Both the position numbers and the translations under genes were made by a program. 34,953 nucleotides of DNA, from positions 1-34,953 of the forward strand of contig JAXDMB010000307.1 in NCBI GenBank assembly GCA_034666325.1, in the 5' to 3' direction. The first letter of the stretch is position 1. Every line of letters begins with the position of its first letter. The stretch is from Vulcanimicrobiota bacterium. GTDB lineage: Bacteria; Vulcanimicrobiota; Vulcanimicrobiia; Vulcanimicrobiales; Vulcanimicrobiaceae. The notes under the pieces are model-generated. The model did no database searches and was not told the DNA's origin. It saw nothing but the letters and a program-made list of their open reading frames with translations. This document shows, in pieces, positions 5,742 through 24,891 of the stretch.

Positions 5742-6659
5742 TTAGGCGAAGGAAACTTCAGGCTCCTCTCGCTCGCCGCGCAGCCGCTTCACGAGCCGCA
5801 TCACGGAGGCCAGCCGGCCGTTGATCGTCGCCTTCCCAACGGGCGGGTGGCAGCGGCGCCCGAGCTCCGCCAGGGTCTCGTCCGGATGGGACAGCCGAAG
5901 TTGAGCCGCCTCGCGGAGCGCGGGCGAGAGGTTCCGCAGGCCGTAGGCGTCGGCCAGATACTGGATCGCGTCGCGCTGCGCCGCCGCCGCCGAGGCGGCC
6001 CGCACGACGTTCGCGGCCTCGGTGTTCACCAGGCGGTGGATGCGGTTCTTGGTCTCCTTGACCGCCCGCACGTCCTCCAGCCGAAAGACCGCGCCCGACG
6101 CCCCGATCGCGCCGAGCACCGTGACGATCGCATCGAGCCCCTTGAGGTACACCACCCGGCGGCCCTTGCGCTGCATCGTGCGCGGCGCGAGCCCCTCGGC
6201 GGCCATCAGCGCCGCGATCCGCTCCGCCCGGGCGGGCTCAGCGGTGACGAACTCGAGGTGATAGCCGTGCTGCGGCGCCGCCACCGAGCCCGCGCACAGG
6301 AACGCCGCGCGCAGCTCCGCGCGGCGTTCGTCGCGGCGTCTGGGCCTCGGCGGCGGGGCGGCGGGCGCCGGGCCGAGATCGATCTCGAACGTCGTCGCCT
6401 TGTAGAGCCGCTGGTCGTGCCCGCGCCGCACCGGCGCCGCCGCGCGCGCGCCCGCTGCGCGGGGCTGTTCCTCGAACAGCGTCCGGGCGAGCCGTGCGAC
6501 GGTCGCGCGCCGGGTCCGGAACGTCGTCTCGCCGCCGGCTTCGATCGCGCCGTAGTAGGCCAGGCCGTTGCGCAGCGCCGCCCGGACGCCCGGATCGGCC
6601 GGCACGTCACGCGCCAGCGCGTCCTTCGCGTCGGCCGAGAGGTTCGAACGCGTCGCCAT
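5742..6659 (-). CDS. whiA: DNA-binding protein WhiA
   Basis: LRAAFLCAGSV..P..GYHLEF, VVYLK, NRIHRLVNTEAAN, LRLSHPDETLAELG...PVGKATINGRL; upstream of gap as in many Terrabacteria. Start taken at ATG 6659. Confidence 0.93.
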   Translation of the reverse strand: MATRSNLSADAKDALARDVPADPGVRAALRNGLAYYGAIEAGGETTFRTRRATVARLARTLFEEQPRAAGARAAAPVRRGHDQRLYKATTFEIDLGPAPAAPPPRPRRRDERRAELRAAFLCAGSVAAPQHGYHLEFVTAEPARAERIAALMAAEGLAPRTMQRKGRRVVYLKGLDAIVTVLGAIGASGAVFRLEDVRAVKETKNRIHRLVNTEAANVVRAASAAAAQRDAIQYLADAYGLRNLSPALREAAQLRLSHPDETLAELGRRCHPPVGKATINGRLASVMRLVKRLRGEREEPEVSFA

Positions 6660-6772
6660 CAGCCGAACCTTTCGAGTCGCGACGCACACACCCGCCGGGA
6701 CATTCGCGTACGGGAAACCGCGCAGCCTCGTGGAAGGGGCCGCCTTCGCCAAGTGCTCGCAGCGGGGCCGAG

Positions 6773-14893: not shown

Positions 14894-16447
14894 GTGACCA
14901 ATGGGGCGGCGCGGGCGTCGAAGTCCTATTTGCGTCTCGTCACTATTGCCGTGCTCATCCCGAGTTGGATGGCGCTCATAGACGGGACGGTAGTTAACGT
15001 TGGGCTCGACACGATGGCGGGGAATCTCGGCGCCTCGATCGACGAAGCGTCGTGGATCTCGTCGATCTACGTGCTTGCCGGCATCTTCGTCATGCCGCTC
15101 ACCGGCTGGGTGGCGACCAACCTGGGCCGCAAGCGGGCGTTTCAGTACGCGGTCGTCTGCTTCACCGCCGGATCGCTTTTGTGCGCGATGGCCGGTTCGC
15201 TGGAGCAACTCGTCGCGATGCGGTTCGTGCAAGGCATCGGCGGCGGGCTGCTGATGCCGCTCGCGATGGCGGCGCTGGTCGACGCGTATCCCGCCGAAGA
15301 GCTGTCGTCCGCGTTCAAGGTGTACGGCGTGTCGGTGATGGCGGGGCCGGCGCTCGGGCCCGCGCTGGGCGGCTGGATCCTGTCGAACGCGACGTGGCCG
15401 TGGATCTTCCTGATCAACGTTCCGCTGGGCATCGTGTCGCTATTCCTGATCGGCGCGGTCGTGCGCGATCAGAGCGAGCGCGGCGAGCGAAGCGCCTTCG
15501 ACTGGGGCGCGCTCACGATCATGGTCGTCGGGTTCGCGGCGCTGCAGTACGTCGTGCAAGAAGGGCCGCGGCATCAGTGGTTCGCGTCGTTCGACGTCAC
15601 GCTCGCGGCGGCGGTCGCGTGCACCGCGCTGTTCATTTTCGTTCGCATGCAGCTGCGCGCCGCGGTGCCGCTCGTCGACTTCAGACCCGTCGCGATCCCG
15701 TCGTACGCGGTCGCGATGGTGCTCGCGCTCATCACGGGCGTCGGCTTCACCGGGACGGCGCTGATCGCGCCGCTCTACATGCAAGACGTGTTGCGCTACG
15801 GACCCGACATGGCGGGGTTCGTCATGGTCCCGAACGCGGTCGGCGTGATCATCGGCACCGAGATATCCGGGCGGCTCAGCAAATGGGTGCCGGCGGGCTG
15901 GCTGTCGGCGGTAAGTCTCGCGCTGTGCGCCGGCGGTACGTTCTGGTTCGCTTTTCTGGGCGACCGCCCGGGGTTCGATCACGCTCTCATGCCGCGTTTC
16001 ATCCAGGGATTCGGCGTCGGGCTGCTCTACGTGCCGCTGAACGTGCTGATGATGTCGCAGGTGCCCAAGCGCCTGGTCGACGCCGCGTCGGGCCTCGGCG
16101 CGCTGACGCGCCAGGTGAGCGCCGGACTCGGCTTTGCGATCCTGGGCACGCTGATCGTTCAGAACCGGATCGCGGCGACGTCCTTGACGGCGAGCCGCGT
16201 GCGCCACGCGACGCTGTTCAGCGATCCGGGACTCGTCGCGATTCAGCGCTGGTTCGCGGCCCACGGGTATTCGAACGGCGACGCGTCCGCGCTGTCGATG
16301 CCGGTCCTCGGCGAATTGGTCGCGCGCGCCGCGACGTCCGCGGCGTACTCCGAGACGTTCTTCATCGTCGCGATCCTGTTCGTCGTGTCGATCCCGTTCT
16401 TGCTCCTGTTCAACCTCGTTCCGCGAAAGGCAGCCGACCCCGTATGA
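14894..16447 (+). CDS. DHA2 family (EmrB/QacA) MFS efflux permease
   Basis: DGTVVNV, WISSIY, MPLTGW..NLGRKR, RFVQGIGGG, GPALGPALGGWI...WPWIFLINVPLG. Confidence 0.92.
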   Translation: MTNGAARASKSYLRLVTIAVLIPSWMALIDGTVVNVGLDTMAGNLGASIDEASWISSIYVLAGIFVMPLTGWVATNLGRKRAFQYAVVCFTAGSLLCAMAGSLEQLVAMRFVQGIGGGLLMPLAMAALVDAYPAEELSSAFKVYGVSVMAGPALGPALGGWILSNATWPWIFLINVPLGIVSLFLIGAVVRDQSERGERSAFDWGALTIMVVGFAALQYVVQEGPRHQWFASFDVTLAAAVACTALFIFVRMQLRAAVPLVDFRPVAIPSYAVAMVLALITGVGFTGTALIAPLYMQDVLRYGPDMAGFVMVPNAVGVIIGTEISGRLSKWVPAGWLSAVSLALCAGGTFWFAFLGDRPGFDHALMPRFIQGFGVGLLYVPLNVLMMSQVPKRLVDAASGLGALTRQVSAGLGFAILGTLIVQNRIAATSLTASRVRHATLFSDPGLVAIQRWFAAHGYSNGDASALSMPVLGELVARAATSAAYSETFFIVAILFVVSIPFLLLFNLVPRKAADPV

Positions 16448-17838
16448 GCATCGTCGCGGACGAAACGACCGAAGAACGCATCAGCAGCGGCGCAAGAGGG
16501 ATCGGGACGAAGGCCAGCGTGGTCGCATCCGCCGTGAAGCTGCCGGCTCCGCGCCCGCCGTGGCTGCGCATCGCGGCCTGCGCCGCCGTCGCCGCCGTCG
16601 CGCTTTACTTCGGCGGGCACTGGCTGCTGGTCGACCGCCACCGCGTCTACACGGACGACGCGCTGATCGACACGAACCAGGTGTTCGTCACGAGCCGCGT
16701 CGCGGAGCGCGTCGCCCGCGTGGTGGTCGAAGAGAACCAGTTCGTGCGCCGCGGGCAGACGCTGGTGGTGCTCGACGACGCGAACGAACGCGCGGCGCTG
16801 GACCTCGCCGAGCAGAACCTCCGCTCGCTGCGCGCGTCCGCGAACGCCGCCGGCGATGCGGCCGCGCTCGAAGGCCAGCTGCAATCGGCGCAGGTGCAAG
16901 AGCAAACCGGCGGCGTCGACGCGGCGCGCAAATCGGCCGCCCTCGCGGAATTGCAAGCCACCGCGGCGTCGCGCGGCGTGGCGGTCGCGCAAGCGCAAGT
17001 CGCGTCGGCACGGTCGCAGCTGTCGTCCGCGTTAGCGGCCGTGCCGGCCGCGCGCGAGACGCTGCGCAAGGCGCAGGCGGACCGCGAGCGCTTCGACGCG
17101 CTCGCGCGCGAAGGCTATGTGGCGCCGGCCACGCAGGAAGCCGCGGTCGCGACGGTCGCGCAAGCGCGCGCGGCGGTCGACGCGGCGGTGGCGCAGAGCG
17201 AAGCGGCGGCCGCGTCGGTGCGCATGGCGCAAGCCGCGCTCGAGCAGCAGCGCGCGAACGCGACGGCCGCCACGAGCGGGACGTCCGCGTCCGCGGCGCA
17301 GATTCCGATCGCGCAAGCGAAGACCGCGGCCGCCGCCGCGCCGTCGCGGGTCGCGAACAAACGCAACACCGCCGCGGCGGCGGGCTCGCAGGCCGACGCG
17401 ATGGCGGCGCAAGTGCGCATCGCCCAGCTCGCGCTGCGCGACACGCGCATCGTGGCGCCCGTCGACGGCTGGGTGTCCGCACGCAACGCGGAAGAGGGCC
17501 AAACGCTCAACGCGGGCCAAGCCGTCGTGACGATCTCGCCGGCGAACCGCATCTACGTCACCGCGAACTACAAGGAGACGCAGATCAACCGCATCCGGCC
17601 CGGCATGCCGGTCGAGATCTCGGTCGACGCGTGCGGCGGCGCGAAGGTTCGCGGCACCGTCGTCGGCTTCGCGCCGGTCGCGCAGAACGCGCTGTCGTCC
17701 ATGCCGTCGCTGTCGGCGCCGACGAACTTCGTCAAGGTGACGCAGCGCGTGCCCGTCCGCATCGCATTGCCGCGCGCAACCAAGACGTGCGTGTTCCGGC
17801 CGGGAACGGCAGTAGAGACGTCCATCCTTGGCGACTGA
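16444..17838 (+). CDS. HlyD/EmrA family membrane fusion protein
   Basis: ATGA overlap with the permease; one TM, TDDA, lipoyl half-motifs (V.ENQFVRRGQ.L; I.APVDG.V), long Ala-rich coiled coil, ANYKETQ, NFVKVTQRVPVRI. Confidence 0.92.
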   Translation: MSIVADETTEERISSGARGIGTKASVVASAVKLPAPRPPWLRIAACAAVAAVALYFGGHWLLVDRHRVYTDDALIDTNQVFVTSRVAERVARVVVEENQFVRRGQTLVVLDDANERAALDLAEQNLRSLRASANAAGDAAALEGQLQSAQVQEQTGGVDAARKSAALAELQATAASRGVAVAQAQVASARSQLSSALAAVPAARETLRKAQADRERFDALAREGYVAPATQEAAVATVAQARAAVDAAVAQSEAAAASVRMAQAALEQQRANATAATSGTSASAAQIPIAQAKTAAAAAPSRVANKRNTAAAAGSQADAMAAQVRIAQLALRDTRIVAPVDGWVSARNAEEGQTLNAGQAVVTISPANRIYVTANYKETQINRIRPGMPVEISVDACGGAKVRGTVVGFAPVAQNALSSMPSLSAPTNFVKVTQRVPVRIALPRATKTCVFRPGTAVETSILGD

Positions 17839-17986
17839 GAACACGGTCGTGTTGCTCGGCGACGCGGAAGCTTCCGGCGGCGATCGCGCGAGCACCGTTC
17901 GCACAGGAGTTCAGGCGGACGTCGGTAATCCGTGCGGCGATGGGCCGCGTCAGGAGCACCGGCGGCTTCCGCCACGAAAGCACGTC

Positions 17987-19465
17987 GTGCTGAAGGCCGC
18001 CGAGCACGCTCTCACGCTCGAACGGTTCTACGAAATCGCGACCGAGGGCAGGCGCGCGGAGATCGACGCCGCCCTTGCCCGCTTCCCTGCGTCCGAACGC
18101 ATCCGCAATCCGATCGCCATCGGCCTGCGCGCGATGAAGTCCGTGAGCGACGGCGACGTTCCGGGCGCGACGGCGCTGCTGAAGCGCGCCACAGCGCACT
18201 GCGGCGGGCGAGAACGCCAATATCTGCTGGAACTTCTCACGCCGCTGCTCCTCAACGCGAATCGAATCGACGAGACCGAAGAGGCACTCGCGGCGACCGA
18301 CGACAGCACGCCCGAGCTCGCGCCGGCTTTCATGGCAACGCGCGCCATCGTCGCGGCACGGCAAGGGAACGACGCGGCGAGCGCGGGGCCGGCGCGCGAA
18401 CCGCTCGACAAAGGACGGGCGGTCGAAAATCCGGCGATCGTCTGCCGCGTTCTGAACCGAACCGCGATGGCAGCGTTCTATCGCGAGGACTTCGACGAGG
18501 CCCAGGACCGCGCGCTGGAAACGGCGCGCTGGTACGAGCGGTTCGAAGCGCATCGAAACGCCGCGATGGCATACTCCCTGCTCTATCTGCTCGCGAACGA
18601 CTGGGTCGGCGACCCCGACGTGGCGCGCTATTACGCACGGCGCATCACGATGAGCGCGCACCTCGGCGAAGACGCCTCGATGGAAAACTACGGCCTTCTC
18701 GCGCAGCTCGATATCGCCGCGGAAGCGGGCGACGTACGCCGCTTCACGTCCCTGCGCGGGCGGCTTCTTTCCCGGCCATTGAACGAACAATACCGCGAGC
18801 GCTACTCGGCGACGATCTCCGAGGTGTTGTCCATGGGCTGGGCTGGGCGTTTCGACACGGCACGCGTCGCGCTCACGTCGCTGCGGCAGACCGAGTCGCT
18901 TTCGCTGGCCGAACGCGCGCTGTGCGACGCGCTTCTCGCCGTCGCGGCACTTTCGACTTGGCACGTCGATCTCGCTCGCCGTATCGCGCGCCGAACGATC
19001 AGCGAAACCGCGGAGCGCTCCGGCAGCGAGCCCCTCTTCGACGCGCGGCGCCGCAGATATGCACGAATTCTGGCCGCCGCCGTGTGCATCGTCCTCGGCG
19101 ATACCGTTCGCGGGCGCCGCGCGCTTTCGCGAACGGTGGATCCGGAGCAGCGGTTCGCGGCGATCGTCGGCAACGACGGGATCGACATGGACCGGGTCCC
19201 GCCGATGATGCGCGGGTATGCGCTGTTCTTGAACGAATCGTGCCGCGCGGCGAATCTGGCCCGCCCGGCGTATACGCTGACCGGCGCCGAGATCGAGGTT
19301 CTCAAGGCGCTGCCGACCGGCATGACGCTTGCGACGATCGCCTCTTCGCTAGGTAAGTCGAGGAAGACGGTCGAGCGTCAGGTCGGGAACATCTACGCGA
19401 AGCTGCACGTCGCCAACCGCGCTCAGGCGATCCAGCGCGCACGCGACCTCGGTATCTATACCTGA
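17987..19465 (+). CDS. Helical-repeat (TPR-like) sensor domain fused to a C-terminal LuxR-type HTH regulator
   Basis: C-terminal LTGAEIEVLKAL..G.T...IA..LGKSRKTVERQVGNIYAKLHVANRAQAI; Ala/Leu-rich helical N-terminal ~430 aa with no receiver or Walker A motif. Start uncertain (17828 TTG or 17987 GTG). Confidence 0.85.
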   Translation: MLKAAEHALTLERFYEIATEGRRAEIDAALARFPASERIRNPIAIGLRAMKSVSDGDVPGATALLKRATAHCGGRERQYLLELLTPLLLNANRIDETEEALAATDDSTPELAPAFMATRAIVAARQGNDAASAGPAREPLDKGRAVENPAIVCRVLNRTAMAAFYREDFDEAQDRALETARWYERFEAHRNAAMAYSLLYLLANDWVGDPDVARYYARRITMSAHLGEDASMENYGLLAQLDIAAEAGDVRRFTSLRGRLLSRPLNEQYRERYSATISEVLSMGWAGRFDTARVALTSLRQTESLSLAERALCDALLAVAALSTWHVDLARRIARRTISETAERSGSEPLFDARRRRYARILAAAVCIVLGDTVRGRRALSRTVDPEQRFAAIVGNDGIDMDRVPPMMRGYALFLNESCRAANLARPAYTLTGAEIEVLKALPTGMTLATIASSLGKSRKTVERQVGNIYAKLHVANRAQAIQRARDLGIYT

Positions 19466-19480
19466 ACTAAATTTTCCGAA

Positions 19481-19503
19481 AAACCGCGATACGGCGCGGG
19501 TTT
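19481..19503 (+). terminator. Possible weak terminator hairpin after the LuxR gene
   Basis: AAACCGCG-atacgg-CGCGGGTTT imperfect inverted repeat, short U-run. Confidence 0.3.
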
Positions 19504-19512
19504 GCGGCGGGA

Positions 19513-19557
19513 ATGAGGCGTTTGCCCCATGCGCCGGGGCGCCCCCGGAGATATGCT
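19513..19557 (+). promoter_or_regulatory. Putative activator box (18-bp inverted repeat) plus -10 element
   Basis: ATGAGGC-gttt-GCCCCAT (19513-19530, 6/7 arm match) and TATGCT (19552-19557); box centre about -42 from the inferred +1. Confidence 0.55.
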
Positions 19558-19596
19558 CTGTCCACTTCCGCTCGTCATTCGAAGAGGGCTTTTATC

Positions 19597-19692
19597 ATGG
19601 CTGAAGCGACGCATGTCGTTTGGTCGGTTTTCAATGCCGTACTATCCGTGTTGCACACCGGCCTGCCCGGAATTCCGCCGGTAACGAACTAG
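19597..19692 (+). CDS. Unannotated 31-aa peptide MAEATHVVWSVFNAVLSVLHTGLPGIPPVTN
   Basis: GAAGAGGG SD-like sequence 8 nt upstream of ATG; TAG at 19690-19692; next ORF begins 4 nt later; first gene after the putative promoter. Confidence 0.65.
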   Translation: MAEATHVVWSVFNAVLSVLHTGLPGIPPVTN

Positions 19693-19696
19693 CACG

Positions 19697-20065
19697 ATGT
19701 ACCAGCTTGCCAGTGACGCTCGTCATCTCGACACGACGCGCCTGTTCATCCAGACGTGCACCTCGATGGCGGCGAGCTCGGATAACATGAATTTGGTCGA
19801 GTCCGTGACGACGCTCGTCCGCAACGTGCTCGACGGCGCCGACATCAAGCCGTTGCGCGACTTCCTCACGCGGGCCGAAGAATGGTGCAGCGATCTCGAC
19901 GACGTTCTCGCCGCGGCCGGACAAACGGTAATCGACGAGATGAACGATTTCTCGCGCATCGGGCTGCACGACGTGGTGAACCGGGTGGCGCAGATCGAGC
20001 GCGATGCTCTGGGCATCCGGCGCTCGAGCACGGGAACCACATTGCGCCCGGTGTACGCCGGCTAG
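19697..20065 (+). CDS. Hypothetical 122-aa helical protein
   Basis: Protein-like composition; fills the gap between the peptide and HD-GYP genes with 4-nt and 12-nt spacers. Confidence 0.75.
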   Translation: MYQLASDARHLDTTRLFIQTCTSMAASSDNMNLVESVTTLVRNVLDGADIKPLRDFLTRAEEWCSDLDDVLAAAGQTVIDEMNDFSRIGLHDVVNRVAQIERDALGIRRSSTGTTLRPVYAG

Positions 20066-20077
20066 GATCCCGAGATC

Positions 20078-21139
20078 ATGCGTGACGACGACATCCTGAA
20101 CGATGCGCCGCATTCCAGCCGCGCGCACATCGCGGAGCTTCTCGGCGAACGACGCGTCGAGCTGTCGAACGGCATCGTCGCGCGCTTGCAGCGCCGCCAA
20201 GGCGTCTGCGTCTCGCCGCTGATCGTGCGGACGCTCGTCCACGCGCTCGCCAACTCCATCGCGGACAGCGCCCCCGACGTCATCGTCCACTGGTCGCGCA
20301 TGGTGCGCCACGCTCATCCCGCCGCGCTGGTCGTCGCCATGGTCGACGCCGCGTGCGAGGCGGTCGAGGAGCTCGCGCACGACGAGCACGGCGACCTCGC
20401 GACGATCGTCGTCTTCCTCGAGATCGTCAAAGCGCGCGCCGCCGCGCAGATGTTCGACGACATGCCCGCGCCCCGCAACGACGCCGACGCGGCGTCGTAC
20501 GCCGCGATCGAAAGCCTGCTCGCGATGCTGCGTGCCCGCGACGACGCGACGTGCAACCACTCCCGCGCCACGGGCGAATGGGGGCGGCGCATCGCGGCGC
20601 GCATGGGCCTCGACACCGTCACCACCGAGCGCATCGTGCGCGCCGGCATCCTGCACGACATCGGCAAGATCCGCGTGCCCGACGCGATCCTGCTAAAACC
20701 CACCGCGCTCGAAGCGCACGAGTGGGAGATCATGAAGCGCCACGCCGAAGCCGGCGCCGAGATCCTTTCGCAGATCCCCGCGCTCGCGCAATACGCGCCG
20801 ATCGTCGGGACGCATCACGAATGGTTCGACGGGCGCGGCTATCCGTACGGCTTGCGCGGAGACGAGATTTCACTGGAGTCGCGGGTGGTCAGTGTCGCCG
20901 ACTCCTTCCATGCGATGACCAGCGACCGTCCGTACCGGCGCGCGCTCACCTACGGGGAGGCGATCGCAGCGCTGGCGGACGGCCGCGGCCGCCAATGGGA
21001 CAAAGAGATCGCCGACGTCATGATCGCCTTGGCTGCGGAAGATCGTACCAGCTCCGCCGACGCGAATTTGCTTTCGGCGCTCACCTCGCCGTTCTTCGGC
21101 GGCGGCGCGAAGCTAACCGGAGACGTCCGGGCGGTCTAG
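20078..21139 (+). CDS. HD-GYP domain cyclic-dinucleotide phosphodiesterase with N-terminal helical domain
   Basis: RD..T..HS, LHDIGK, K.H...GAEIL, HHEWFDGRGYP.GL.G.EI, VADSFHAMTSDRPYR. Confidence 0.93.
   Translation: MRDDDILNDAPHSSRAHIAELLGERRVELSNGIVARLQRRQGVCVSPLIVRTLVHALANSIADSAPDVIVHWSRMVRHAHPAALVVAMVDAACEAVEELAHDEHGDLATIVVFLEIVKARAAAQMFDDMPAPRNDADAASYAAIESLLAMLRARDDATCNHSRATGEWGRRIAARMGLDTVTTERIVRAGILHDIGKIRVPDAILLKPTALEAHEWEIMKRHAEAGAEILSQIPALAQYAPIVGTHHEWFDGRGYPYGLRGDEISLESRVVSVADSFHAMTSDRPYRRALTYGEAIAALADGRGRQWDKEIADVMIALAAEDRTSSADANLLSALTSPFFGGGAKLTGDVRAV

Positions 21140-21348: not shown

Positions 21349-24891
<3,543 letters not shown>

Follow-up and report, generated by a model that had tools for sequence, protein, structure and literature searches.

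The question raised by contig JAXDMB010000307.1 (34,953 nucleotides; assembly GCA_034666325.1) is whether a very small gene behind a LuxR-type regulator encodes the ligand of that regulator. The whole contig, hereafter called the window, is C307 of an Eremiobacterota (Vulcanimicrobiota) genome labelled G000, which is 88.5% complete. It contains a gene for a large regulator, a palindrome followed by a -10 box, and a unit of three genes in which that of a 31-aa peptide lies 4 nt before that of a 122-aa helical protein, and the latter 12 nt before that of an HD-GYP phosphodiesterase (Table 1). A previous interpretation made without database searches, the sequence-only reading, described this tight unit, led by the tiny peptide gene and ending in an intact enzyme, and proposed a peptide-receptor pair whose output tunes cyclic di-GMP (c-di-GMP) through a feedback loop. 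All parts of the unit were found to be present, and the cassette of a conserved regulator, a likely binding site and a tiny peptide gene is real. For the loop as a whole we lean, if only slightly, towards a peptide-switched activator with RRNPP-like autoinduction that derives from the MalT/STAND family.

Orthologous loci were defined by a regulator of at least 55% identity with a gene for the 122-aa protein behind it, and 35 distinct Eremiobacterota loci qualified. In them the regulator is followed by the 18-bp palindrome, the small peptide gene and the genes of the helical protein and HD-GYP, in this sequence, and a small open reading frame (ORF) led by a ribosome-binding site (RBS) was found behind the regulator in 35 of 35. 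The downstream ORF and the palindrome, for which the homologues had been checked, are both kept. The peptide gene begins 131 nt past the regulator stop codon in the window and about 130-145 nt past it in the orthologues, and longer alternative ORFs (51-59 aa) across the intergenic region were rejected as not conserved. The cassette adjoins mfd, convergent and downstream, in 25 of the 26 loci with enough flanking sequence. None of 146 pattern matches in viral contigs was a relative, and a plasmid collection gave no match; these collections thus offer no indication of a mobile or phage (arbitrium-like) setting.

The peptide itself is variable in its leader and fixed at its end. Among 29 aligned leader-bearing peptides the identity to the window peptide was 21-71%, only Met1 and the double proline being invariant, and in 33 of the 35 loci the peptide ends in PP and exactly three further residues. 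The two exceptions are L004, with a single Pro, and L058, the record of which is frameshifted in several genes. In 16 sister pairs picked from the receptor tree (411 codons), the ratio of nonsynonymous to synonymous substitution (dN/dS) was 0.57 for the leader and 0.23 for the last six codons, or 0.38 for the latter once the shared prolines, which the selection rule favoured, were excluded. Five orthologues (L034, L035, L049, L055 and L056) encode peptides of 10 residues only, such as MAPSIPPVTL, and form one starred clade nested among leader-bearing relatives in the FastTree phylogeny. This natural deletion seems to mark the tail as the functional unit, and the idea of the sequence-only reading that a C-terminal fragment is the active part gains backing from the same five orthologues. 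Across the family the peptides vary from 10 to 60 residues while the register of the tail is unchanged, and the tail types PPVCN, PPLGL, IPLCG, EP(L/V)CI and PP(T/S)(V/I)G track the clades of the receptor. Co-variation between receptor columns and peptide tail gave one tail trait with just 7 independent pairs. Co-folding of the regulator with the full 31-aa peptide, with alignments, gave 0.06 against a mark of 0.32 with an uncertain peptide fold, which is evidence neither way.

The association of peptide and regulator was then scored by a fixed rule, an RBS and a short hydrophobic ORF with Pro near the C-terminus downstream of the gene, in 136 of 143 family rows; seven were dropped for coming from an unpublished genome or having less than 270 nt downstream. 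The rule picked out a peptide for 82 of 126 members with a helix-turn-helix (HTH), made up of 57 of 84 short forms and 25 of 42 with both STAND ATPase and HTH, and for one of the ten rows without HTH, mostly frameshift fragments. As a control, 6 of 1,305 long genes in the own genome passed, three of them the family's own loci, which leaves 3 of 1,302 unrelated genes; of the other scored LuxR-HTH genes none of 16 passed. Since the family rows are related, the result is an enrichment and not a count of independent events. The peptide is tied to the regulator family rather than to the downstream gene. The family, counted up to E 1e-30, comprises 245 clusters at 50% identity, and the own genome has three regulator-peptide pairs, on C307, C425 and C349, each with a different tail.

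The two further pairs differ in layout from that of the window. At G000:C425:838-3453 (-) an 871-aa frame that comprises a Walker A motif, a TPR region and a LuxR HTH has a palindrome of its own and is followed by a 25-aa peptide ending in VPPMGN and then by an HD-GYP gene, with no 122-aa gene; this HD-GYP protein shares its N-terminal domain with that of the window (45% identity). At G000:C349:14671-17490 (-) a 939-aa frame is accompanied by a 41-aa peptide, and downstream lie a 57-aa Ser/Thr-rich precursor resembling those of ribosomally synthesised and post-translationally modified peptides (RiPPs; its weak match to a lanthipeptide family, at E 0.003, lies below cut-off) and an ABC transporter. 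By analogy with Rgg/SHP of streptococci, C349 is possibly a peptide-controlled RiPP cluster. Homologues with STAND and TPR regions but no HTH, at G000:C299:4874-8779 (-) and G000:C456:1-2721 (-), directly overlap HD-GYP genes and are not followed by a peptide gene. A peptidase fragment overlapping the start of the STAND gene of C299, at the contig end, is presumably subtilase-like judging from a motif, and five Pro-kuma_activ matches were seen elsewhere in the own genome. Extra short regulators without a peptide of their own, in tandem or divergent arrangement, stand beside peptide-bearing loci at L096/L097/L155, L166, L173, L062, L053 and L066, and are possibly heteromeric partners or eavesdropping receptors. 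In L024 (G024:C1:2545478-2549929) the helical gene and an HD-GYP gene are placed upstream of a regulator paralogue, in divergent orientation, and not downstream of it.

The palindrome and the -10 box that the sequence-only reading saw behind the regulator are present in the orthologues as well as in the window. In 35 distinct upstream sequences the palindrome and a trailing GCG hardly vary; the 18-19 bases after them change freely, and TATGCT comes next. A generic sigma-70 scan did not report this promoter, consistent with there being no recognisable -35 box. With its centre at about -42 to -43 and no consensus -35, the palindrome has the geometry of an activator site, and it is predicted to be one that overlaps the -35 region; in lux-box-type promoters the activator site has a comparable position and the palindrome likewise overlaps -35. 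At 51 of 80 peptide loci a TANNNT box is preceded, at a distance of 21-24 nt, by arms that match in 5 or more of 7 positions, compared to 2.0 ± 1.4 loci (maximum 8) in 200 shuffles. The recognition helix KSRKTVERQV goes with the palindrome ATGAGG..CCTCAT, RSVYTVQAHI with CTA(G/C)T..A(C/G)TAG, RTINTVR(S/T)HV with CTCGTCC..GGACGAG and RSVNTVYNHT with (C/A)TAGTCAA... Because the palindrome changes between clades along with the recognition helix of the HTH, each regulator appears to read the box behind its own gene, and this joint change is the best evidence that it does.

In the own genome a single strong site was found, at 28.2 bits compared to 13.1 for the next. As there is just one such site in this 88.5% complete genome, the regulon looks local and the regulator appears not to be self-controlled. 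The second-best site, G000:C117:7184, is set in A+T-rich sequence, has a GATAAT box similarly far away and is possibly a weak regulon member. A looser palindrome pattern, applied to five genomes, returned mostly G+C-rich GTG..CAC variants. Tracts similar to the A- and T-tracts just upstream of the palindrome occur in most of 34 orthologous regions; as RNA, this repeat folds no better than shuffles (z -1.1).

The large helical-repeat protein with a C-terminal LuxR HTH and no receiver or ATPase domain, as the sequence-only reading had described the regulator, was borne out by Pfam and by an AlphaFold model. The only Pfam match above cut-off is GerE/LuxR (PF00196, E 9e-11) in residues 430-485. 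A receiver, an ATPase and an autoinducer domain are all absent from the Pfam result, and neither a Walker A motif nor an AAA family was found in the 492 aa, so that an N-terminal STAND ATPase is absent. The model (alignment of 92 rows; predicted local distance difference test, pLDDT, 91) has helices over 11-425 and then the HTH, and its structural alignment identified the N-terminal part as a fold of helical TPR repeats, although the Pfam TPR models miss the regulator itself and match its homologues below cut-off only. Close homologues are mostly of 483-512 aa. With VIA-align the regulator matched Rap (8rte, Z 19.5, root mean square deviation (rmsd) 4.8, 330 aligned), NprR (5dbk, Z 18.8, rmsd 4.7, 307 aligned) and MalT domain III (1hz4, Z 18.5, rmsd 4.2, 309 aligned); these three are tied, Rap and NprR chains overall giving Z 17.6-19.5. 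An imperfect inverted repeat at 17960-18002 spans the start codon of the regulator.

The ancestry of the regulator, on which sequence told more than structure, was approached with profile A2, built from its TPR part alone (34 rows, one from an unpublished genome). At E 1e-10 matches came from 198 of the 219 further genomes of the host family and from none of 81 genomes of other families of the phylum, a tally that includes three unpublished genomes. Among RRNPP receptors the profile hit RapJ at E 0.006, RapF at 0.16 and NprR at 0.44, each weaker than the eukaryotic LGN TPRs (1e-5). The weaker matches within the host family belong mostly to reading frames some 880 aa long that have a Walker A motif and the AAA_22 and GerE families, which is the MalT/LAL architecture, and the best Atlas hits of the regulator were to PF17874 TPR_MalT (score 0.93, 159 shared features). 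By these two results the regulator appears to be equivalent to two domains of a MalT-like STAND activator, those for sensing and for DNA binding, minus the ATPase. The sequence-only reading is kept as to the TPR-like receptor and corrected as to type, the protein being of the MalT/STAND kind without ATPase and not an RRNPP receptor with a moved HTH. As the long form of about 880 aa is so widespread, loss of the ATPase in the short forms would be the simpler course of events; the FastTree receptor tree is unrooted and carries no clade test.

Table 1. Features of the cassette, in positions of the window.
Feature	Position	Strand	Description
Regulator, 492 aa	17987..19465	+	GTG start; TPR/SUPR-type superhelix about 11-425, C-terminal LuxR (GerE) HTH 430-485
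A-tract...T-tract imperfect inverted repeat	19479..19503		Just upstream of palindrome; regulator-gene terminator or upstream promoter element
18-bp palindrome ATGAGGCGTTTGCCCCAT	19513..19530		ATGAGG-N6-CC(C/T)CAT; predicted operator, centre about 42-43 bases before predicted transcription start
-10 box TATGCT	19552..19557	+	21 nt past palindrome (21-22 nt in orthologues)
Shine-Dalgarno-like GAAGAGGG	19581..19588	+	Before peptide gene; GGAG/GGAGG in most orthologues
Peptide gene, 31 aa	19597..19692	+	Hydrophobic N-terminal helix, tail (I/L/V)-P-P-(V/I/L)-x-x-COOH, here GIPPVTN; predicted signal precursor
All-helical protein, 122 aa	19697..20065	+	Motif F-x3-C-T-S invariant; assigned to no family in Pfam or NCBIfam
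HD-GYP phosphodiesterase, 353 aa	20078..21139	+	N-terminal domain of about 135 aa, then HD-GYP domain

The enzyme at the end of the unit is intact as claimed, with its HD, metal-ligand and GYP motifs all kept (H161, HD193-194, H222, HH246-247 and DGRGYPYGL; HD, HHE and GYP). Its catalytic domain aligns with solved c-di-GMP/cGAMP phosphodiesterases (e.g. PDB 4mcw, 4r8z and 5z7c) at E 5e-34 to 1e-24, and for the N-terminal domain no consistent Pfam match was obtained. HD-GYP follows the peptide in 41 of 84 short and 29 of 42 STAND rows. That the output goes to c-di-GMP is thus upheld in so far as HD-GYP is the commonest output, but it is not the sole one, the alternative downstream genes being a small HTH-like protein, other regulators, Hpt with a response-regulator HD-GYP, and the RiPP-like precursor and ABC transporter of C349. 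Right after the peptide gene many paralogous loci (L007, L008, L011, L012, L026, L027 and L159-L162) have an ORF of some 55-70 aa that bears a DF(L/I/V)xG motif and an HTH-like pattern; it persists in L013, where the peptide gene was not found. In the clade of L014, L017, L018 and L019 the peptides end in C-x5/6-C, which makes them candidates for disulphide-closed signals, and further along their operons come an Hpt-like protein and a response-regulator HD-GYP.

The 122-aa protein had 181 homologues in the search, with no Pfam family among the 120 listed. Its model has five helices (pLDDT 82) and is closest to the non-haem globin-type stressosome domain 3zta (Z 11.3, rmsd 6.1, 110 aligned), followed by the globin-type 3pmc (Z 8.2) and 2bnl (Z 7.5), all of which lie below the caution level of about 13 for helical proteins. 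On this model its likeness to the non-haem globin sensor domains RsbR-N, MtR-N and pXO2-61 is tentative; Foldseek gave no match at E 0.001 and an Atlas search nothing above chance. A copy of the HD-GYP N-terminal domain was considered for this protein and rejected (hhalign probability 0.3%). Gene order invites the guess, which we would not press, that it may be a partner of the phosphodiesterase.

In the peptide-switched loop the HTH would very likely bind the palindrome and activate the operon of peptide, helical protein and HD-GYP from about -43. The mature signal would probably be the last 6-10 residues (in the window about GIPPVTN), released after the hydrophobic leader has carried the precursor to the membrane, and with the same probability this tail would bind the TPR groove and so replace the ATP-dependent switch of the long forms. 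It is fairly likely that the tail would leave the cell and come back via an oligopeptide permease, so that the loop counts cells. The bound tail would enable the HTH dimer to activate the operon, whereupon peptide and HD-GYP would rise together and, given that the latter quite probably degrades c-di-GMP, the level of c-di-GMP would fall. The proposal of a peptide-receptor pair that tunes c-di-GMP with a feedback loop stands as the best reading, supported by the conserved ORF, the palindrome and the TPR fold.

LpxC was found in 5 of 5 genomes searched, the own included, and Omp85 in 5 of 5 relatives searched and not in the own, incomplete assembly; their presence points to a diderm host with an outer membrane. 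The 15 matches to family-5 peptide-binding proteins in the own genome, together with M50 proteases, hint non-specifically at enough for import and processing. Export is hinted at by 10 of 87 peptides in which the hydrophobic stretch leads into a long hydrophilic linker, and by 11 of the 29 with a terminal Cys, which have another Cys no more than 14 residues away.

Several observations weigh against a peptide that leaves the cell and binds the regulator. Eukaryotic TPR chains (APC/C and LGN, Z 19-22) match the fold of the regulator equally well or better than Rap and NprR, so that the TPR fold itself is no proof of a peptide ligand. Arg158 of the regulator, the presence of which in 87 of 87 peptide-bearing rows counts in favour of the loop, is invariant in peptide-free rows too. 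The agreement of tail types with the receptor tree would be yielded by linkage alone. The peptide rule failed in 27 of 84 short and 17 of 42 STAND rows, some of which are threshold misses, tandem copies or frameshifted records while others look truly peptide-free. With regard to transport, the leader has no basic n-region (Lys/Arg among the first six residues in 3 of 87 peptides, Asp/Glu in 32 of 87), Sec is not available to the 10-residue forms, and a second Cys is just modestly more frequent than in peptides that lack a terminal Cys (12 of 58), the rows being related. Peptide-binding proteins and M50 proteases are, according to the controls, common in bacteria generally. No transporter or peptidase is constant in the cassette; upstream EmrAB-type genes were set aside as the peptide exporter because an EmrA-type gene is upstream in 17 of 28 loci only.

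These difficulties of export would be met by a peptide that acts only inside the producing cell, as a brake or timer whose tail shuts the operon off or locks it on. The leader without basic n-region, the clade of leaderless 10-residue peptides and the cassette without a dedicated exporter all fit such a role; the peptide gene leads the operon behind the palindrome, an order that suits feedback of either sign. We nevertheless think it unlikely, though worth keeping in view, as most peptides retain a hydrophobic leader under purifying selection (dN/dS 0.57), some have long linkers and paired Cys, and the clade-specific tails suit private channels. Leaderless peptides of 8-10 residues, moreover, act between cells in Firmicutes according to PMC10518010.

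That the regulator senses a small molecule and the peptide is an output, either a small membrane protein or a signal for another receptor, seems more doubtful still. Such an arrangement would follow MalT, the inducer of which is the sugar maltotriose. The MalT-like receptor domain, the many peptides hydrophobic enough for residence in the membrane and the sizeable minority of family members without a detected peptide speak for it, but the hydrophobic part is dispensable in five orthologues that keep the tail, and the peptide accompanies the regulator family across unlike operons when other LuxR-HTH genes score 0 of 16. Least probable, and by our estimate quite remote, is a translational leader of the MgtL or TnaC type. 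Pro-Pro is a known ribosome-stalling motif, and an invariant PP near the stop with a gap to the next gene of mostly 1-14 nt could gate that gene; the leaderless clade, however, has gaps of about 25-55 nt, PP is replaced by a single Pro or by E-P in several relatives, the lengths run from 10 to 60 residues in the same tail register, and the ORF goes with the regulator family upstream of it and with no single downstream function.

Outside the cassette, an MFS transporter and an HlyD/EmrA-type gene lie upstream in the window at 14894-17838 (+), and mfd downstream at 21349-24891 (-). Away from family regulators, G000:C161 has at about 6600-6770 (+), downstream of an enoyl-CoA hydratase-like gene, a 54-aa ORF with a strong RBS, a hydrophobic N-terminus and G-M-M-P-P-D repeats, possibly a multi-copy or orphan signal precursor.

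The peptide-switched loop points to Bacillota-style peptide logic, with an unrelated receptor family, in a two-membrane phylum, carried by a family of little-studied soil bacteria, and if true STAND-type transcription activators gain a gene-encoded ligand. The chances are evenly balanced that Eremiobacterota independently evolved cytoplasmic peptide quorum sensing from MalT/STAND proteins, ATP-switched activators having become receptors of Pro-rich peptides. A large branch would then have lost the ATPase to become one-component TPR-LuxR switches and some lineages the peptide leader, the result being several private channels per diderm genome, each with its own tail and operator and wired to c-di-GMP turnover or RiPP production. 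The natural intermediates, with and without ATPase and with and without peptide leader, make switching of STAND sensors directly testable, and since each locus of this large family supplies receptor, operator and candidate ligand together, orthogonal peptide-inducible switches may result. No account of the cassette was found in the literature searched, most subscription papers being outside its coverage, and it is apparently undescribed in print.

Compared to known systems, the HD-GYP protein is like the phosphodiesterases 4mcw, 4r8z and 5z7c in its motifs and unlike them in its N-terminal domain. The cassette shares with LuxI/LuxR acyl-homoserine lactone circuits the LuxR-type HTH, a palindrome overlapping the -35 region and a signal gene that comes first in the regulated operon, whereas Pfam reported no autoinducer-binding domain or synthase on its four proteins and the putative signal is a gene-encoded peptide. 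MalT/LAL STAND activators likewise have a TPR/SUPR sensor domain and then a LuxR HTH, but the window protein is without their ATPase region. Their mechanism is an ATP- and inducer-dependent oligomerisation, and in the literature found by searching no adjacent peptide gene is described for MalT. The leaderless RopB/SIP type uses hydrophobic communication peptides of 8-10 residues made without a leader, as given in PMC10518010, and is resembled by the 10-residue forms of five of the 35 orthologues. It differs in receptor family and phylum, the short form here being derived within a leader-bearing family and the window peptide having 31 aa and a leader.

For the RRNPP(A) systems (PlcR/PapR, NprR/NprX, Rgg/SHP, Rap/Phr and AimR/AimP), PMC10075063 names a TPR receptor of about 250-500 aa adjoining a propeptide gene of 10-100 aa with RBS, a canonical propeptide with a basic n-region and a hydrophobic region, and cytoplasmic-receptor peptide signalling as a trait of Bacillota; according to PMC12700828 the HTH of RRNPPA receptors is N-terminal or absent. 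Members occur in Bacillota and their mobile elements, the propeptide has either a Sec signal or an SHP profile, and the mature signal is made up of the last 4-10 residues. The window agrees in its 492-aa receptor of TPR fold, the adjoining propeptide gene with RBS, the hydrophobic stretch of the leader and a peptide gene under a palindromic box; its mature signal, too, would likely come from the C-terminal residues. It is unlike these systems in that the HTH is C-terminal and LuxR-type, the host a diderm of Eremiobacterota and not of Bacillota, the leader without basic n-region in 84 of 87 peptides, and the homologues of the receptor STAND ATPases. As two defining features, the position of the HTH and the host group, differ, the cassette is not a member of RRNPP.

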